From Escherichia phage Bp7, in sequence record NC_019500.1: 64,000 nucleotides of DNA; one strand, given 5' to 3'. The notes below the pieces were generated by a model that was not told where the DNA came from, searched no databases, and worked only from the letters and a program-made list of their open reading frames with translations. Shown here one piece after another: positions 2,325 through 38,270 of this stretch. The position numbers and the translations under genes were made by a program. Each line of letters opens with the position of its first letter. Position 1 is the stretch's first letter.

Positions 2325-2827
2325 GTACCTTTAACTTCCATAAGAACATGGAAATCATGGAAGGTAATGCTAAGATTATGAAGTTCATTGCACGTGATGA
2401 ACAGCTCCACCTTAAAGGCACCCAGTACATTATTCGTCAGCTCCAACTTGGTACTGATGGCGACGAATGGGTTAAAATTGCTCAAGAGTGCGAACAAGAA
2501 GCAGTTGATATTTTCATGGAAGTTAACCGTCAAGAAAAAGAATGGGCCGCTCACCTGTTCAAAGATGGTACTTGCCCTGGATTAAATACTCAGAACATGG
2601 GTGCTTTTGTCGATTACCTGACAGTTTCTCGTATGAAGCAATGTGGCTTACCGTGTCCTATTACTGATGCTCCTACTCGCCATCCTTATCCTTGGATTCG
2701 CGAATACCTGAACTCTGATGCTGTACAGGCTGCTCCTCAGGAAGTGGAAATCAGTTCTTACCTTGTAGCACAAATTGATAACGATGTTGATGAAAAAGTA
2801 ATGGCATCGTACAAGAAATATTTTTAA
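2325..2827 (+). CDS. nrdB: Ribonucleotide reductase small subunit NrdB, exon 2
   Basis: TFNFHKNMEIMEGNAKIMKFIARDEQLHLKGTQ... to C-terminus; matches NrdB iron-ligand region. Confidence 0.8.
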
Positions 2828-2854
2828 GGAATGGGGCTTCGGCCCCTTATTGCT

Positions 2855-3268
2855 ATGAAAGAAATCGCAGACGAATTTAGCTTTATCAAGTACGTCACCC
2901 TAGAACTCCAAGATGACGCCACCATAGCTCCACTCACAGTACCAAATAAACAAAATGTCATATATGCTATAGCGGTTGATGATATACTAGTCTACGTTGG
3001 GAAGACTAAAAATCTTCGTAAGCGCATCAACTACTACCGAACCGCTATTAATCGTAAGGACCAAACGTCGGATTCGACTAAGTCCATTCTGATTCATGAA
3101 GCATTAATGGCTGGTAAAAAGGTAGAGTTCTATGCACGGCAGTGCTTTAATCTGTCGATGACTAACGAACTTGGAACTATGTCAGTTGAGACCATGTCTC
3201 TTGAAGAGCCAATGTTCATAAAGAAATTTAATCCACCTTGGAATACCCAACACCGATTAAAAGGATAA
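2855..3268 (+). CDS. denA: Endonuclease II DenA (GIY-YIG family)
   Basis: MKEIADEFSFIKY...YAIAVDDILVYVGKTKNLRKRINYYRTAINRKD; strong similarity to T4 DenA; start taken at internal ATG matching T4 N-terminus. Confidence 0.85.
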   Translation: MKEIADEFSFIKYVTLELQDDATIAPLTVPNKQNVIYAIAVDDILVYVGKTKNLRKRINYYRTAINRKDQTSDSTKSILIHEALMAGKKVEFYARQCFNLSMTNELGTMSVETMSLEEPMFIKKFNPPWNTQHRLKG

Positions 3269-3272
3269 AGCA

Positions 3273-4421
3273 ATGATTGAATTATATGATAACTTGATGG
3301 CCCTGGTTAAAAACTCGACTAAATCTAAGTTCTTCTTTAAAGACTTTCAGAGTGCGCTAGGAGTCAACTATCGCATCTTTAGTTATAACTATGCCTCGTA
3401 CAGTGATTGGTTGGAAGACGGCGCGCTAGAGGGCCGAGGCATTATGTTTGAAATGGACGAGAACGGTCCAGTACGTATTGCTGCTCGTCCTATGCAAAAG
3501 TTCTTTAACCTTGACGAAAACCCTCTGACCATCGGTCTAGATTTGTCACCAGAAAATATTGACCTCGTAATGGCTAAGGAAGATGGTTCTCTGATTTCTA
3601 CATTCATGGACCGACAGTATCTTTCTGTTAAATCTAAAGGCTCTATCCATTCATCAATGGTGCATGATTCTTTACGGTTCCTTCGTCTCCCTGAGAACGA
3701 GGCTTTTGCCGCACGTCTAGAAGAAATCACCAAAGCTGGGTATACCTGCAACCTTGAATATGTAGCACCTACCAACCGTATCGTTCTGGCTTACCAAGAA
3801 ACAAACCTCATCCTGTTGAACGTTCGTAATAATGAAACAGGTGAATATATTCCGTATGCTGAATTGTTTAAAGATGGTGCCCTGCGTAAGCATTTGGTTG
3901 AAAGCTATGACCTCGCTGAAGGTGATTTCGTAGAAAACATCCGTAAACAAGAAGGTATTGAAGGTTTCATCTTTGTACTGAAAGATGGTACGTTCTTTAA
4001 ACTCAAAACCGCCTGGTACAGTGCACTGCACCATACCAAAGATTCCATTAACAATAACGAACGTTTGTTTGAAGTTGTAGTGGCTGGTGGAACTGATGAC
4101 CTTCGTGGATTGTTCAGTACAGATTCGTTTGCTATCGAGAAAATCGATGCCTTTGAACGTATCCATTTAGATTACTTAGAACAATCATTAGCCTTGTTAG
4201 AAGCAGCGTACTCCCAACTTAAGGGTCGCGACCGTAAGGACTACGCCGTTACTGGTCAACTAATCCTTAAGGACTTTCCAGGGTTGTTCTCTATTCTTAT
4301 GCAGGCGTACGTAGGCGGCATTAATTATGATACGGTCATGGACCAGATTAACTCTGTGTTCTTGAAAAACCATAAAGCCCAAATCCCTGAAAAATATTTG
4401 AAAGAAATTGTGGTAGAGTAG
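3273..4421 (+). CDS. rnlA: RNA ligase 1 (gene 63, tail fiber attachment catalyst)
   Basis: 382 aa; YRIFSYNYASYSDWL...ALEGRGIMFEMD...KEDGSL motifs matching T4 RnlA. Confidence 0.85.
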   Translation: MIELYDNLMALVKNSTKSKFFFKDFQSALGVNYRIFSYNYASYSDWLEDGALEGRGIMFEMDENGPVRIAARPMQKFFNLDENPLTIGLDLSPENIDLVMAKEDGSLISTFMDRQYLSVKSKGSIHSSMVHDSLRFLRLPENEAFAARLEEITKAGYTCNLEYVAPTNRIVLAYQETNLILLNVRNNETGEYIPYAELFKDGALRKHLVESYDLAEGDFVENIRKQEGIEGFIFVLKDGTFFKLKTAWYSALHHTKDSINNNERLFEVVVAGGTDDLRGLFSTDSFAIEKIDAFERIHLDYLEQSLALLEAAYSQLKGRDRKDYAVTGQLILKDFPGLFSILMQAYVGGINYDTVMDQINSVFLKNHKAQIPEKYLKEIVVE

Positions 4422-7181: not shown

Positions 7182-7389
7182 CAAACACCATGAAGTTGAA
7201 GAAGAAGCTTATAAAGAGCTTCAGAAATTGGTAGGTCAGAATATGTCTCCTACCCTCATTAACTCACTAGCGGCCCTTCGTAATGACCTCAATGAACGTT
7301 ACAAAGGCGAGTACTATGTTGAGTTCGTTCCTCTGACTGAAGTCGTTGACCGGTTTATTGTTAACGTGAAGGTCCATACAGTACACTGA
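7177..7389 (+). CDS. Hypothetical protein
   Basis: ORF in cd.x-type small-gene block; internal ATG with RBS chosen. Confidence 0.4.
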   Translation, partial: YNKHHEVEEEAYKELQKLVGQNMSPTLINSLAALRNDLNERYKGEYYVEFVPLTEVVDRFIVNVKVHTVH

Positions 7390-7396
7390 GGTAATT

Positions 7397-7675
7397 ATGT
7401 TCCCTACTTATTCTGAAATTGTTAAAGTAGTTTTTAGTCAGATTGTATCTGATTATCTATACGAAACCGTCGACACGTCGACTGAACTAAAAGTGCACGG
7501 TCGTTTGTCTGCTATTCTGGAAATCATGTTCCCGGATGCAGTTGATGCAATCACTGTTCAACTCACGCCTGGTGCAGCATTTGCAATTGTTCCATTTAAA
7601 ATTGATAACCACATTTTGGCTATTTCATGCAAAATGGACTTCCAGAAACAAACGGTAGTTGTCGAAGCAATTTAA
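7397..7675 (+). CDS. Hypothetical protein
   Basis: 92 aa ORF. Confidence 0.45.
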   Translation: MFPTYSEIVKVVFSQIVSDYLYETVDTSTELKVHGRLSAILEIMFPDAVDAITVQLTPGAAFAIVPFKIDNHILAISCKMDFQKQTVVVEAI

Positions 7676-26286: not shown

Positions 26287-26294
26287 TATTTATA
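26287..26294 (-). promoter_or_regulatory. Late promoter TATAAATA (minus strand) for gene 51
   Basis: Exact T4 late promoter octamer on minus strand. Confidence 0.5.
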
Positions 26295-26298
26295 AATA
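26291..26298 (+). promoter_or_regulatory. Late promoter TATAAATA (plus strand) for genes 26-25
   Basis: Exact octamer, overlapping the divergent one. Confidence 0.5.
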
Positions 26299-30696: not shown

Positions 30697-30704
30697 TATA
30701 AATA
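30697..30704 (+). promoter_or_regulatory. Late promoter TATAAATA for inh-hoc
   Basis: Exact octamer 33 nt upstream of inh ATG. Confidence 0.5.
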
Positions 30705-30710
30705 TAGTTA

Positions 30711-30718
30711 TATTTATA
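30711..30718 (-). promoter_or_regulatory. Late promoter TATAAATA (minus strand) for uvsW
   Basis: Exact octamer on minus strand upstream of uvsW start. Confidence 0.5.
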
Positions 30719-32695: not shown

Positions 32696-33703
32696 ATGTT
32701 CAAGAAATATAGCAGTCTCGAAAACCACTACAACAGTAAGTTTATCGAAAAACTCCGTACTAATGGTTTGACTGGTGGTGAATGGGTAGCACGTGAGAAG
32801 ATTCATGGAACCAACTTTAGTTTAATCATAGAACGTGACGCAGTCACATGCGCCAAGCGCACTGGCCCTATCCTCCCTGCTGAAGATTTCTATGGTTATG
32901 AAATTGTACTTAAGAACTACGCTGATTCTATTAAATCAGTTCAACATCTAATTGAATCGATTAATTATCAGTCATACCAGATTTATGGCGAATTCGCTGG
33001 GACAGGTATCCAGAAGAATGTGGACTACGGCGATAAAGACTTTTATGTGTTCGATATCCGAGTTACTAAAGAAGATGGCTCAGAATCTGTTCTAACCGAT
33101 ACATTGATGGAAGCCTTCTGTATTATCCATAAGTTTAAGGTAGCTCCATGTCTGGCCACTGGTAGCTTTGAAGACCTTATTAAACTTCCTAATGATTTTG
33201 ATTCAGTTGTTCCTGATTATAATTTTGCAGTGGATAACGCAGGCTTAACTATTGCAAACTCAACCGATTTTATTCCTAAGGTAGAAGGTAAGGTATTCAC
33301 GGCTGAAGGCTTTGTATTGAAACCTGATGTTCCTACCTGGCTTCCAAACGGAAATCGTGTGGCGATTAAATGTAAGAACTCTAAATTCAGCGAGAAGAAA
33401 AAGTCTGATAAGCCTATTAAAGTTGCAGTGGTTTTATCCCAAGATGATATGGATTTGATGTGGCAATTCACTGATTATGTGACTGTTAACCGCATTAACA
33501 ATGTCATCAGTAAGATTGGCGAAGTATCGCCGAAGGATTTCGGAAAGGTGATGGGCTTGACAGTCCAGGATATCCTTGAAGAAGCCGCCCGTGAAGAATT
33601 GGAATTAACTGATGCGGAAAATCCCGTTGAAGTTAAAAAGCAGCTCGTTGAGTGTGTAAAAGAAACATTAAGACATGTATGGATTGAACTAGTATCCAAA
33701 TAA
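32696..33703 (+). CDS. rnlB: RNA ligase 2
   Basis: [20 protein letters not shown]...[10 protein letters not shown] (KxHG adenylation motif); near-identical to T4 Rnl2. Confidence 0.9.
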
Positions 33704-33710
33704 ACGATAA

Positions 33711-33738
33711 AGGGACCGTAAGGTCCCTTTTATTTTTC
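33711..33738. terminator. Bidirectional terminator AGGGACCGTAAGGTCCCT + T-tract
   Basis: Hairpin between convergent rnlB and gene 24 paralog. Confidence 0.6.
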
Positions 33739-35010
33739 TAAAGGCGGTAATTTTACGCCGAGATAAGAACTCAATTGACTTTGATTAGCCATTTTGTCCA
33801 TATCAGAACCATCAATAATGCGGGCTTCTTTATCGTCCTTAGCGACGGTATAAGGGTTTGCAGTCAATGCATAACGAGCAAGCAATGCTACTGTAGGTTG
33901 TAAGCTTTCCGGGTCAACAATAACCTTAAATTCACCAACTGAAGTATCACCTTCTTCGTCAACCACATTCAAACCTTCCGTATAAGGCGCATAATATAAA
34001 GATGCGACCGTCTGTCCTTCACCCATCTGGGCATTTACACCAACAATAACATAATCACATGGACTATTCATATCAGCATAAAGTGGTAGGCCATTCTTTA
34101 ATATACCATAAGCCAATTCGTCCTGGTCTTCCTTTTTCTCAACCCAACCAGAGGCGGCGAGAATAGCAGCACAACGAGAACTAGCTACTGCATAAGTCCC
34201 GGCAAAAGAAGTCTGTCGTTGGACGGCAGAGTTCATCTCACACATATAATAATATAATGTGCGAGCACGGTCCTGGGCATTATCGTAGCGAGGGTTGGTA
34301 AGGTCTAATACACCCTTTTCAGAAACACCCTGGACTTTAAAACGAGAGCTCACGGTAATTAATGACTGTAATACATCCTTATTAATTTCTTCTGCCATTT
34401 GAATGCCTAGCAGATTTTCAACGAAATTAGGAGCATTAAACCCGTTAGATTCTAGGTCTTGGGCTAATTCGACTGTCAATGAAGTTTTCAGTTTACGTGA
34501 TTTAACTTCAGATTGCCATTTGTCGATGCGGAATCCGGTTTCAGCAATTTCAGGATGGCCTTGTTCAAATTTAGAAGTAATAGCAGCATCCGACACCATA
34601 CGGATATGGCCGGCTGCCACTGCTTCAGAAATAACTTCGCTGAGGTTGGTTTCTGTGGTTCCGGCGAAAGGAGATGCTTCTAGAACTTTAAACACTACGC
34701 TTTCAAACTGGAACATATCACCGACCGCATAAGCTGTAGATGAATCAGTAAATTCTGGAATATTTTCACGTTCCGTCATACCAATCTGGCCCGCAAATGT
34801 TGCTCCACCAAGATAAGTCATTTTGTCGTCAGGGTTCAGTACACGTACCCCATACAGAGCAGCAACCGGTTGATTTGTTTTTTGTTCAGCAACTAGGGCT
34901 TTAAAGATTCGTTTATTAGTTGCTTGGGTGTATGAAAGAAGAGCAGGACGGCCAACCGAGCTGGCAGCCGTCAATGTGGATTCTTTAATTAGGTCTACAA
35001 TCTTAGACAT
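33730..35010 (-). CDS. Capsid vertex protein gp24 paralog (divergent second copy)
   Basis: 426 aa; gp24/gp23-fold conserved blocks (KSRKLKTSLTVELAQDLESNGF, YYAPYTEGL, RYALTANPYTVAKDDKEARIID). Confidence 0.85.
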   Translation of the reverse strand: MSKIVDLIKESTLTAASSVGRPALLSYTQATNKRIFKALVAEQKTNQPVAALYGVRVLNPDDKMTYLGGATFAGQIGMTERENIPEFTDSSTAYAVGDMFQFESVVFKVLEASPFAGTTETNLSEVISEAVAAGHIRMVSDAAITSKFEQGHPEIAETGFRIDKWQSEVKSRKLKTSLTVELAQDLESNGFNAPNFVENLLGIQMAEEINKDVLQSLITVSSRFKVQGVSEKGVLDLTNPRYDNAQDRARTLYYYMCEMNSAVQRQTSFAGTYAVASSRCAAILAASGWVEKKEDQDELAYGILKNGLPLYADMNSPCDYVIVGVNAQMGEGQTVASLYYAPYTEGLNVVDEEGDTSVGEFKVIVDPESLQPTVALLARYALTANPYTVAKDDKEARIIDGSDMDKMANQSQLSSYLGVKLPPLEK

Positions 35011-36293
35011 TAATCAGCCTCGTAAATAATTGCCGGAAGTTTAACGCCAACCAGATAAGACATATTGCTCTGTCCAGCCATTAAATCCATATTGGTTGCA
35101 TCGATAACACGAGCTTCTTTATCGTCTTTAGCCACGGTGTACGGGTTAGCTGATAGTGCATAACGAACCATCAGAGAAATAGAAGGTTGTAATGAATCCG
35201 GGTCAACAATAACCTTATAAGCACCGACGTGTTCTTGGTCATCTAAATCTAAGCCTTCGGTATAGGGAGCGTAGAAAATAGAACCGACAACTTCATTACC
35301 GCCGTAATTCTCTTTAACACCAACGGTAACATAATCTAATGGACTGTTAACGTCACAAAACAGAGGCAGACCATTCAACAAATATCCGTATGCAGTTTCC
35401 GGAAGCCAATTATTATCTTCGGGTTTATGTTTTAACCAGCCAGAACCTGCAAGCATTGCAGCCACACGACTTGAAGCCACAACAAACGTGCCAGAATAAG
35501 AAGTAGTTTTCTGGATTTCAGAATTCATCTCACAAACGAGTTCATAAAGTTTACGTGCAGATTCAGGAGCACTGTCATAAGACAAATCGATGATGCCGTT
35601 ATCAGATACACCAGTAACTTTATAACGTTTGGATACGGTTATTAGAGATTGCAGAACGTCTTTATTAATTTCATCTGCCATTACTGTAGCCAAGAGGTCT
35701 TCTAAGAACGCCGGCGCGTCAAAGCCATTTGATTCCATATCCTGCGCTAATTCTACAGTCAAAGCCGTCTTCAATTTACGGGTCTTAACCGGAGCATTCC
35801 ATTTATTAACCTGGAATACGGCATCAGAGATTTCTACATCACTCGCTTCAAATTTAGTGGTATGGGCAGCATCAGGAACCAGACGACATGTTAATGACAC
35901 TAAACCTTCTTGAAGAGCATCAGCCAATTCTGTGGCGCTAGTGGACGCGAGTGGGCTTGCTTTAAGAGCCTTATAAACCACATTCTGATACTTGAAATAT
36001 TCACCCTGAGCAATCGCCTGGGCCTTATCTGTGAGTTCTGGGATAGTTTCACGGTCTTTAGAACCAACTTCACCACCATAAGAGGCACCTGTCTGGAAAC
36101 TAAATTCATTATCAGGGGTAAGATATTTGACACCATACAGTGCAGCAATAGGCTGGCTAGTACGTTGTTCGGCGATAATATCACGGTAAATCAATTTGGT
36201 TGTAGCACGGGTCAAAGCAACAAGATTAGGGCGACCCAATGAGTTGCTGGAAGTAGTTGTTGACTCGCGCAGTAATTCGTTAATCTTTGCCAT
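35010..36293 (-). CDS. 24: Capsid vertex protein gp24
   Basis: 427 aa; MAKINELLRESTTTSSNSLGRPNLVALTRATTKLIY... matches T4 gp24. Confidence 0.9.
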   Translation of the reverse strand: MAKINELLRESTTTSSNSLGRPNLVALTRATTKLIYRDIIAEQRTSQPIAALYGVKYLTPDNEFSFQTGASYGGEVGSKDRETIPELTDKAQAIAQGEYFKYQNVVYKALKASPLASTSATELADALQEGLVSLTCRLVPDAAHTTKFEASDVEISDAVFQVNKWNAPVKTRKLKTALTVELAQDMESNGFDAPAFLEDLLATVMADEINKDVLQSLITVSKRYKVTGVSDNGIIDLSYDSAPESARKLYELVCEMNSEIQKTTSYSGTFVVASSRVAAMLAGSGWLKHKPEDNNWLPETAYGYLLNGLPLFCDVNSPLDYVTVGVKENYGGNEVVGSIFYAPYTEGLDLDDQEHVGAYKVIVDPDSLQPSISLMVRYALSANPYTVAKDDKEARVIDATNMDLMAGQSNMSYLVGVKLPAIIYEAD

Positions 36294-36321
36294 TGCGCTT
36301 TCCTTATTGAGGGTATATGTT

Positions 36322-36329
36322 TATTTATA
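36322..36329 (-). promoter_or_regulatory. Late promoter TATAAATA (minus) for gene 24
   Basis: Exact octamer about 30 nt upstream of gene 24 start. Confidence 0.55.
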
Positions 36330-36335
36330 AAAGTT

Positions 36336-36365
36336 GTTTACAGCAAGATTCTCACATGTTACTAT
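36336..36365 (+). promoter_or_regulatory. Putative early promoter (GTTTAC, 18 nt, TACTAT)
   Basis: Motif match. Confidence 0.5.
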
Positions 36366-36394
36366 AGACCTATCAAAACATGAGGAGATTAAAA

Positions 36395-36661
36395 ATGAAC
36401 AAGTTAAACTTTATTCGTACTACTCTTTCCGCTCTTGATAAAGACATCAAAGCTCTGGTAGAAAAATTCGGTAACAATCCTAATGGTAATGCAGTGAATG
36501 CCTTAGTTAAGAAATACGAAGCCATGGCTTATGCTACCGACTTCTGGTGGAACGGTGAATACTCTACCCATACCAAAGACAAATCTGGTAACTGGCTGAA
36601 AATCCAAGAAAATCGTATTGACTTCCGTGATATCATCAACCGCCGAGTTAAGATTGCATAA
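36395..36661 (+). CDS. Hypothetical small protein, antisense-oriented between genes 24 and 23
   Basis: 88 aa; RBS gaggag 7 nt upstream; own promoter and terminator. Confidence 0.55.
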   Translation: MNKLNFIRTTLSALDKDIKALVEKFGNNPNGNAVNALVKKYEAMAYATDFWWNGEYSTHTKDKSGNWLKIQENRIDFRDIINRRVKIA

Positions 36662-36676
36662 TACAGAAACAAGAAT

Positions 36677-36700
36677 GGGAGACCGAAGTCTCCCATAATA
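36677..36700. terminator. Hairpin GGGAGACCGAAGTCTCCC between convergent ORF and gene 23
   Basis: Perfect 7-bp stem, tetraloop. Confidence 0.5.
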
Positions 36701-36710
36701 AGGTTATATC

Positions 36711-38270
36711 TTAGATACCTTTAACATATACGCGACGGAAGTAACCATTCAGACCAAGGCTGTTAACGATGTCAGGCATACCATTCTGGATACGTTTGGT
36801 AGGAGCCTGAGCAGCAGGGTCAGCGAACGGGTTGATACCGATACCGTAACGAGTTTTGAAGCCCATTACCGGTTGGAAGTTCTTCGGATCGGAACCACGC
36901 AGCGGGGTCAGTGCAACGTACGGAGCATAGTAGATACCTGCGTCCATTTCGTTAGCGCCTTTATAACCAATGGTGAAGTAATCGGAACGTGCATACTGGT
37001 CGATGTAAACGCGATATTTACCACCAAGAACACCGGCAAATACTGCTTTGGTTGTGTCAACGTTGAAACCTTGACCCAGACCTTGAGCTGCATAACTTAC
37101 AGAAGTATCAACTGCAGCCAGTACGTTAACTACGTTACGGGAAGCGATGATGAAGTTACCAGCACCACGACCGGTCTGACGAGCGATTTCCGCTGCTTCT
37201 TTATCAATCTGGAACAGAAGGGCTTTAAAGCTCTCACCGGCCCAACGAGCACCACGGATATCAATCGGGTCCTGGAAGTCAAACACACCAGCTTTAGCGC
37301 CGACGGTGTTAGTCATACCAGATTTACCAACCTGTGCAGAGTAGTTAATCCAATCGATAACTTCACGGTTGATTTCGAGCATAATTTCGGTAGCAAGGAT
37401 ACCGGACAGTTCAGCATCTGCATCCATACCGTGTACTGCACGAAGGTCCTGTGCCAGTTCGATAGAGTAGCTTGCTTTCAGCTGACGGGATTTAGCTTCG
37501 ATAACTTGTTTGTCGATGCGGAAGCCCATTTCGTTCCACGGGTTATCGGTAGAACCGTTAAAGCCTTCCTGAAGTTCAGCGATAGAAGTAGCCATACCTT
37601 CAGCCAATTCAGCCAACTTACCAGCTTCAATCAAAGCGGTAACAGCAGCATCCAGTTTAGCGGCATCAGTAGCAGCAGCATCAACGGTTACAGCTTCAAC
37701 AGCCTGGAAGTGTGCAGCACCGGTAGCTTCGAAGAAGTGGGAATAAATTTTACCAACTTCCAGAACTTTGCTTGCAGCCAGTGCTTCGAAAGATTTAGCA
37801 GCACCCTGACCAGAGAACATAGCGTCCGGAGAATACATCGGATGGAAAGCTTCTTTAGCGCCAGCAGCGATAGGGTCTTTACCATAAACTGCACGAAGGG
37901 CAAATACCTGGCCGGTAGGGTTATTCAGAGGCTGAACACCACAAATGTCAAAAGCAATCAGATGAGGAATAGCACGACGAACCATACCCATTACTGCCGG
38001 CCCAATCTGAGTTACAGCACCAGAAGTCTGGCCAGCTGCGATATTGGTAGCATCATAACCGTGGTCACCACCGATTTCAGCTTCGGTCAGGAAAGAACCA
38101 AATGCTTCAGAGATTTTTTCGTCACGATATTCCGGAGCAGTCAGGATGTCTTGTTCCTGGTTTTCGAAAATTTTAGCGATGATAGCTTGTTTAGAAGCAC
38201 CAACGATTTCAGGAAGAGCTTCGTTTTCCAGCAGAGCGGACCATTTTTGAACTAATGCATTCTTTTTCAT
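36711..38270 (-). CDS. 23: Major capsid protein gp23
   Basis: 519 aa; long identical stretches to T4 gp23 (GDHGYDATNIAAGQTSGAVTQIGPAVMGMVRRAIP..., C-terminus RVYVKGI). Confidence 0.95.
   Translation of the reverse strand: MKKNALVQKWSALLENEALPEIVGASKQAIIAKIFENQEQDILTAPEYRDEKISEAFGSFLTEAEIGGDHGYDATNIAAGQTSGAVTQIGPAVMGMVRRAIPHLIAFDICGVQPLNNPTGQVFALRAVYGKDPIAAGAKEAFHPMYSPDAMFSGQGAAKSFEALAASKVLEVGKIYSHFFEATGAAHFQAVEAVTVDAAATDAAKLDAAVTALIEAGKLAELAEGMATSIAELQEGFNGSTDNPWNEMGFRIDKQVIEAKSRQLKASYSIELAQDLRAVHGMDADAELSGILATEIMLEINREVIDWINYSAQVGKSGMTNTVGAKAGVFDFQDPIDIRGARWAGESFKALLFQIDKEAAEIARQTGRGAGNFIIASRNVVNVLAAVDTSVSYAAQGLGQGFNVDTTKAVFAGVLGGKYRVYIDQYARSDYFTIGYKGANEMDAGIYYAPYVALTPLRGSDPKNFQPVMGFKTRYGIGINPFADPAAQAPTKRIQNGMPDIVNSLGLNGYFRRVYVKGI

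Follow-up and report, generated by a model that had tools for sequence, protein, structure and literature searches.

A small gene between capsid genes 24 and 23 of Escherichia phage Bp7 as a probable exchangeable early accessory cassette

The genome of Escherichia phage Bp7 (NC_019500.1) was analysed over a stretch of 64,000 nucleotides (nt; hereafter the window), in which a plus-strand open reading frame (ORF) of 88 amino acids (aa) lies between two minus-strand late genes, namely gene 24 (capsid vertex protein) and gene 23 (major capsid protein). The original prediction, made from the sequence alone, had proposed a small early gene in antisense orientation at this position, and the ORF is indeed found there (Table 1). 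We propose that the region 36330-36661 is probably a self-contained and exchangeable early accessory cassette, bounded by the gene 24 late promoter on one side and the gene 23 terminator on the other. The ORF is a genuine protein-coding gene under strong purifying selection. Its product is very probably an expressed early protein, the early timing in Bp7 being judged from sequence and from T4, and with similar assurance we regard the gene as a non-essential accessory. It has already been annotated, and genes of this kind are ordinary for a T4-like phage.

Over the 601 bases around the ORF, several phages, QL01 among them, are 100% identical to the window, JS98 (Dhakavirus, Tevenvirinae) is 96.7% identical, and the window represents a Dhakavirus of the JS98/QL01 type. 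The 88-aa protein is identical to gp177 of QL01 and 98% identical to orf173 of JS98, and from end to end (residues 1-88 against profile positions 1-88 of 90) it matches the family phrog_6003 (PHROG 6003; E = 6.8e-50), whose members include JS98 orf173, IME08 orf166, JS09_0270, and RB69ORF188c/189c and bear the name 'hypothetical protein' in every database entry found. A tblastn search with this protein detected 236 phage records, which cluster at three levels of identity (90-100%, 60-80%, and below 60%, the last mostly 34-39%), and the antisense location between genes 24 and 23 is shared by Dhakavirus, Gaprivervirus, Mosigvirus, and some Tequatrovirus genomes. With a profile, 23 hits were obtained among 5.8 billion proteins. 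The window protein and 18 full-length hits (27-94% identity) have the same length and could be aligned almost without gaps, with M1, K3, F6, N30-G31-N32, A45, and Q71 invariant in all 19 sequences. An exhaustive hidden Markov model (HMM) search of 1.84 billion representative proteins returned nine hits, three of them spurious or chimeric. Among the candidates that were rejected as relatives, P0025 and P0026, both long repeat proteins, owe their E-values of ~1e-12 solely to the summing of many weak repeat matches, and P0023 (160 aa) joins a 32-residue piece of the family (profile positions 32-63) to unrelated sequence and is probably an assembly chimera. PHROG 6003 is a very small, phage-only family.

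That this small gene is genuine, as had been claimed, is borne out by purifying selection and by the same protein length in homologues of as little as 27% identity. Among close alleles, the ratio of non-synonymous to synonymous substitution rates (dN/dS; Nei-Gojobori method) is 0.07-0.14; the window differs from JS98 by seven synonymous and three non-synonymous changes, and from LF82-3 by 18.5 synonymous versus 6.5 non-synonymous changes. In distant pairs for which the synonymous rate (dS) could still be estimated the ratio is 0.16-0.46, and between clades synonymous sites are near saturation, while protein length and fold persist. The window protein is basic, with an isoelectric point (pI) of 9.6; pI values of 9.2-9.9 were calculated for 17 of the 19 members (range 8.0-10.1), and the grand average of hydropathy (GRAVY) is negative in all of them, so that the whole family is basic and hydrophilic. 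An AlphaFold2 model based on the family alignment (predicted local distance difference test, pLDDT, 93.8; predicted template modelling score, pTM, 0.79) predicts a compact fold of helix (residues 3-25), helix (31-48), beta-hairpin (strands 52-61 and 67-71), and helix (77-87). An independent model in BFVD, for a homologue with 40% identity, superposes at a template modelling score (TM-score) of 0.90.

Profile and structure-prediction searches, which had been suggested as a check on the prediction, yielded this confident fold and no relative of known function, whether by sequence or by fold. In Pfam, the window protein and the other 18 members showed only sub-threshold matches (DUF5380 at E = 0.075-0.11, DUF4859, and a Ca-binding family). 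The NCBIfam search gave nothing meaningful, and a profile search against PDB sequences detected only designed helical proteins at E >= 0.1. Foldseek found no PDB structure at E <= 0.001 (best E = 1.3), and in BFVD it matched only the family's own member. No Rfam family was matched, and no paralogue of the ORF was detected within the window. The statement that the ORF lacks endonuclease motifs also holds, considering that no GIY-YIG domain was found by Pfam in the window protein or the other 18 members and that the best BLASTP match to T4 SegD has an E-value of 0.6 over eight residues.

Upstream of the ORF, the predicted near-consensus early promoter (GTTTAC, 18 nt, TACTAT) is present and conserved across genera. 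It matches the T4 early consensus, which comprises a GTTTAC -35 box, a TAnnAT -10 box, and an A/T-rich upstream region, and an extended -10 TG is found at 36357-36358; a generic promoter scan also reported TTTACA-17-TACTAT with the TG (score 9/12). The ORF transcript is predicted to start near 36372. Within the window, GTTTAC-N16-19-TAnnAT was observed five times versus 1.1 expected, each time on the plus strand; the further matches at 4421, 5712, 19714, and 32312 are candidate early promoters, the last of which sits upstream of rnlB. We aligned the region from the gene 24 start to the ORF start in eight loci, namely the window, JS98, IME08, G28 (Tequatrovirus), VR25 (Gaprivervirus), JS09 and LF82-3 (both Mosigvirus), and a metagenomic T4-like contig. 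All of these loci retain the late promoter box of gene 24, a TT.TTTACA block, and a -10 box that reads TACTAT, TATTAT, or CATAAT, whereas the 17-18 nt between the promoter hexamers largely differ among them (Dhakavirus, Gaprivervirus, Mosigvirus, and Tequatrovirus). Retention of the hexamers together with divergence of the spacer is the footprint expected of a working promoter.

The early promoter and the gene 24 late promoter abut back to back, in agreement with what had been predicted (Table 1). The late box TATAAATA is invariant across all aligned loci, T4 and T2 included, and this motif occurs 20 times in the window versus 6.7 expected, with 16 of the 20 copies on the minus strand. Both this motif and the early promoter motif exceed chance expectation. 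The A/T-rich complement of the late box is positioned as an UP-like element would be for the divergent early promoter. Elsewhere in the window, opposite-strand TATAAATA boxes overlap or lie less than about 20 nt apart at 26287-26298 and 30697-30718, and these pairs may be back-to-back late promoters. We also noticed a weak, A/T-rich, and imperfect 13-nt inverted repeat (CATGTTACTATAG / CTATCAAAACATG, 77% complementary) at 36355-36382, which covers the -10 box and the start of the leader.

As to translation, the strong ribosome-binding site GAGGAG named in the original prediction was confirmed, and it is kept in the alignment. The ORF leader is unstructured, folding at merely -2.2 kcal/mol (z-score 0.55). 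An in-frame upstream ATG at 36380 would add five residues and give a protein of 93 aa; this start was rejected in view of its absence from JS09, LF82-3, and other homologues. Because the upstream ATG is missing in homologues and is only ~9 nt from the predicted transcript start, the true start of the ORF is 36395.

A downstream hairpin had been counted among the features of the small gene. The hairpin does exist at 36675-36696, but it is not the ORF's, being a terminator on the strand of gene 23. On the minus strand, the stem AUGGGAGAC-UUCG-GUCUCCCAU with its UUCG tetraloop is followed by the U-rich run UCUUGUUUCU; read on the plus strand, the hairpin has a CGAA loop and a tail, AUAAUAAGG, that contains no U-tract, and a terminator scan scored the hairpin on the minus strand only. 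The hairpin after gene 23 is kept, with compensatory changes, in T4, VR25, JS09, segD-bearing phages, and T2, irrespective of the adjoining content, and in a comparison of six genomes, Nolan et al. 2006 (PMC1524935) predicted a terminator after gene 23 in every one. Because of the minus-strand UUCG loop and U-tract and because it is present in T2, which lacks the ORF, we interpret the hairpin as the conserved terminator of gene 23, which forms the right-hand boundary of the cassette. Considering that the plus strand lacks a U-tract after the hairpin, read-through is plausible, and early transcription might run on antisense into gene 23.

Comparison of the spacer between genes 23 and 24 in different phages reveals four states. 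It is empty in T2 and most other Tequatrovirus records, in which 84 nt contain the late promoter and then the terminator without the GTTTAC promoter; it contains segD only in T4 and about 50 records; it contains the ORF only in the window and roughly 200 of the 236 ORF-bearing records; and it contains both in 38 records (IME08, IME341, the LF82 series, AV114, and others), where segD begins 3 nt after the ORF stop on the same strand and seemingly has a common promoter with it. The unit that is present or absent is the whole cassette, including promoter, ribosome site, and ORF (~36330-36661). All 38 records with IME08-type segD are T-even phages of E. coli or Shigella, and in those examined the ORF is of the Dhakavirus type, an allele that appears to accompany segD when it moves.

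The Mosigvirus LF82-3 provides an example of such exchange. Its gene 24 and the intergenic stretch before the ORF match JS09 at 92-100% identity; from the ORF start to about two-thirds of the way along segD, the match is to the Dhakavirus IME08 (92-100%), falling to ~63% at the segD 3' end, and ~100% identity with JS09 resumes just inside gene 23. These switches place the junctions at the ribosome site/ORF start and at the terminator/gene 23 3' end, and the ORF+segD block was moved as a unit into Mosigvirus genomes. Disruption has been observed as well: in the RB69 reference (NC_004928), +1 and -1 single-base indels relative to JS09 break the ORF up into ORF189c (29 aa) and ORF188c (41 aa) (extracted locus 7292-7532), which reflects either a lab-strain pseudogene or old sequencing errors, and at least two other records show truncated ORF products. 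The original prediction had regarded absence or disruption of the ORF in close relatives as evidence against the gene. T4 and T2 do in fact lack the ORF, and the RB69 reference carries a frameshifted copy, but the ORF is not spurious, and these losses imply that the gene is dispensable in some backgrounds.

T4 segD, which the original prediction had placed around this site, occupies the same 23-24 intergenic position. The T4 locus shares with the window the intergenic site, the orientation antisense to the capsid genes, a homologous upstream region with the gene 24 late promoter and the early promoter, and the gene 23 terminator; however, it encodes a free-standing homing endonuclease of the GIY-YIG type (223 aa) in place of the unrelated 88-aa protein without domain match. 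The region upstream of segD aligns with the ORF promoter and contains ATTTAC, an 18-nt spacer, TATTAT, and a TG two bases before the -10 box. It was also observed that the T4 GGAG and the first ATG of annotated segD align with the ribosome site and start of the ORF. The T4 arrangement looks like the product of an ORF deletion from an ORF+segD state. In a 2022 time-course omics study of T4, segD was classified as 'early-RNA, middle-protein' and the SegD protein was detected (PMC9697503 supplements). This RNA class is the sole experimental support for early activity of the promoter, and it is indirect since read-through from upstream early/middle promoters in T4 is possible.

Homologues were also found in ABPH49 (an rV5-like phage of Vequintavirinae) and two similar metagenomic contigs, with 34-40% identity to the window protein. 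They are located within long same-strand runs of small ORFs, almost none of which has a Pfam hit. These sites are away from capsid genes, and the function of the family is therefore not tied to capsid genes. Each rV5-like homologue has a promoter-like sequence on its 5' side and a G+C hairpin on its 3' side. A common 5' leader (GGCAGGCAATACCGCCAGCCAC-like) was observed at 3634-3645 and 3972-3983 of locus L014, 3971-3982 of L015, and 2471-2482 of L006, and in L014 such a leader also precedes a neighbouring small gene. The leader looks like a repeated early regulatory cassette resembling the promoter-early stem-loop (PeSL) type, and in L014 a G+C stem-loop overlaps the -35 hexamer.

Early-promoter cassettes have been described beside genes of unknown function, a few of them inside virion modules (Arbiol et al. 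2010; PMC2839356). The PeSL cassettes reported there resemble the Bp7 locus in having a strong sigma-70-like promoter with an A/T-rich upstream region and a small uncharacterised gene, in occupying a plastic spot in a conserved virion module, and in being exchanged at regulatory flanks. However, no G+C-rich stem-loop was found in or beside the ORF promoter, as an inverted-repeat scan of 36290-36400 gave only A/T palindromes and the imperfect 13-nt repeat mentioned above. A PeSL-like stem-loop over the -35 hexamer is a feature of at least one rV5-like homologue (L014) and not of the Bp7 cassette, whose sole stem-loop, the gene 23 terminator, faces the other way and lies at the opposite end from the promoter. 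Because the defining G+C stem-loop of the promoter is absent, we did not classify the ORF cassette as PeSL.

Based on these results, a mechanism may be proposed for the cassette. Host sigma-70 RNA polymerase would initiate at GTTTAC/TACTAT (near 36372) in the first minutes of infection, and the short unstructured leader with its strong Shine-Dalgarno sequence would direct the synthesis of a soluble, basic protein of 88 aa (pI ~9.6), which would be dispensable for the basic lytic cycle and most likely binds an enterobacterial host macromolecule (protein or nucleic acid) in host takeover or counter-defence. RNA extending past the stop codon would meet the gene 23 terminator only in the wrong orientation, and some early RNA probably continues antisense into gene 23 until Rho or RNA decay acts on it. 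Recombination may use the conserved promoter and the gene 23 terminator as its left and right flanks, and in some phages segD would have been added just after the ORF, apparently being expressed from the ORF's promoter. By analogy, we lean towards a host rather than a phage target, and nucleic-acid binding specifically is a tentative suggestion to which we give less credence. Analogues are found among the small early host-takeover proteins of T-even phages, such as AsiA, Alc, MotB, and Gp94/Emp of phage AV110, which the ORF product would resemble in being ~10 kDa, non-structural, lineage-specific, often dispensable, and expressed from an early promoter, and which act by binding host protein or DNA; no sequence or fold similarity between them and the 88-aa protein was detected, and the comparison is one of analogy only. 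A more specific scenario, in which the gene encodes an early effector of new fold that neutralises an enterobacteria-specific host factor (part of immunity or of a core process) and has been transferred horizontally between T-even and rV5-like coliphages, with the cassette also supplying the early promoter of T4 segD, is speculative and, taken as a whole, rather unlikely.

Several points weigh against the interpretation as a host-directed early accessory gene. Binding of a host macromolecule is an argument by analogy, and neither homology nor fold gave a hint of function (Pfam, NCBIfam, PDB, Foldseek, and HMM searches). No paper on the gene was found under the topics of RB69ORF188c, JS98 early promoters, Dhakavirus and Mosigvirus transcriptomes, and Tevenvirinae anti-defence, and no transcript, proteomic, or phenotypic data were found for it in any phage. 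Strong selection and ~236 records suggest usefulness, yet the loss in T4 and T2 speaks against a general requirement. In addition, the early class of T4 segD could result from read-through from promoters upstream of rnlB/24.2, and a 2010 review stated that no promoter specific to segD was identifiable and assumed its transcripts to be present at vanishingly low levels (PMC2988022).

Other explanations were also considered. The early RNA itself might be the functional product, running antisense into gene 23 or interfering with the gene 24 late promoter, with the ORF being incidental. This would fit the 6-nt distance between the two promoters, the likely read-through into gene 23 in the absence of a plus-strand U-tract, and the retention of the promoter in T4 despite ORF loss, and anti-late RNA early in T4 infection is known from the classical literature. 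However, dN/dS values of 0.07-0.14, with protein length and fold being kept at near-saturated synonymous sites, are hard to reconcile with an RNA-only function, and so are the strong ribosome site and the unstructured leader; furthermore, the rV5-like homologues lie far from any capsid gene, the promoter is missing from this site in T2-type phages, and behind the T4 promoter there is another protein gene, segD. We consider an RNA-only function very improbable. The same grade applies to a role in head morphogenesis, such as that of a chaperone or regulator acting on gp23, gp24, or the duplicated gp24. Although the position between genes 23 and 24 is kept in four Tevenvirinae genera and several carriers have two gp24 paralogues, the ORF is on the opposite strand with an early rather than a late promoter, it is absent in T4 and T2, whose heads are of the same kind, and the rV5-like homologues occur in small-ORF arrays away from structural genes. 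Moreover, JS09 and LF82-3 show one gp24 copy beside rnlB yet carry the ORF, and a link to the gp24 duplication was rejected on this ground.

It is also conceivable that the ORF belongs to the segD mobile element, either as a degenerate endonuclease piece or as a helper or target module. It occupies the same site as T4 segD, is followed by segD at 3 nt in 38 records with a seemingly common promoter, and was transferred into Mosigvirus together with segD. Such co-transfer, however, is expected from co-conversion of flanking markers in homing or recombination, and the ORF product has neither similarity to SegD nor a GIY-YIG or other nuclease domain. In addition, segD is lacking from about 200 of the 236 ORF records, alleles at 27-36% identity hold the same site without it, and no nuclease Pfam domain was found in the neighbours of the rV5-like homologues, which together make membership in the segD element improbable. 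Finally, the ORF is short, has no known domain, and is called 'hypothetical protein' everywhere, as might be the case for a chance ORF in a spacer that has been propagated by annotation pipelines; in view of purifying selection, deep protein conservation, a reproducible confident fold, conserved expression signals, and the match to PHROG 6003, this is scarcely credible.

Regarding the genomic neighbourhood, the local order is rnlB, gene 24b, gene 24a, the small ORF, gene 23, gene 22, and gene 21 (Table 1). The gene 24 paralogues are arranged in tandem, the start of one overlapping the stop of the other, and the duplication has likewise been annotated in JS98, IME08, and VR25. The presence of the small ORF is uncorrelated with this duplication.

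Table 1. Positions of the ORF, its expression signals, and neighbouring features (window coordinates unless another record or locus is given).
Feature	Position	Strand	Remarks
rnlB	32696-33703	+	left of gene 24b
Gene 24b (capsid vertex paralogue)	33730-35010	-	tandem with gene 24a
Gene 24a (capsid vertex protein)	35010-36293	-	left neighbour of the ORF
Gene 24a late promoter box, T4 type, TATAAATA	36322-36329	-	exact match; 6 nt from the -35 hexamer
Putative early promoter (sigma-70 type)	36336-36365	+	-35 GTTTAC 36336-36341; -10 TACTAT 36360-36365
Shine-Dalgarno sequence GAGGAG	36382-36387	+	7 nt before the ATG; kept in the alignment
88-aa ORF	36395-36661	+	stop 36659-36661; between gene 24a and gene 23
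Predicted intrinsic terminator hairpin of gene 23	36675-36696	-	9 bp; AUGGGAGAC-UUCG-GUCUCCCAU, then U-rich run
Gene 23 (major capsid protein)	36711-38270	-	right neighbour of the ORF
Gene 22 and gene 21	beyond gene 23	-	
T4 segD-upstream region	NC_000866 107233-107322		homologous to the ORF promoter
LF82-3 exchanged region	2500-3517 of extracted locus		Dhakavirus-type ORF+segD block in JS09-like surroundings

Uncharacterised early genes of T4-like phages number in the hundreds, and one more is unsurprising. The confident fold without structural neighbour and the strong selection make this gene a reasonable candidate for host-takeover and anti-defence screens. Screens that select candidates by T4 homology miss the PHROG 6003 gene: in a 2026 study of the Mosigvirus AV110 (Gp94/Emp; bioRxiv 10.64898/2026.09.14.751387), 45 early proteins were screened, and the family could not be included because candidates were picked by homology to T4 early proteins. 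Our alignment places T4 segD behind the same conserved early promoter, and, if the scenario of a shared cassette promoter is true, it would answer how T4 segD is transcribed; the 2010 review (PMC2988022) had guessed at negligible expression, and early RNA and detectable protein are seen in the later omics data. With its four states, the spacer between genes 23 and 24 illustrates clearly how cassettes are exchanged at conserved regulatory flanks within an otherwise rigid capsid module, which may be useful for understanding and engineering insertion-tolerant sites in T-even genomes.

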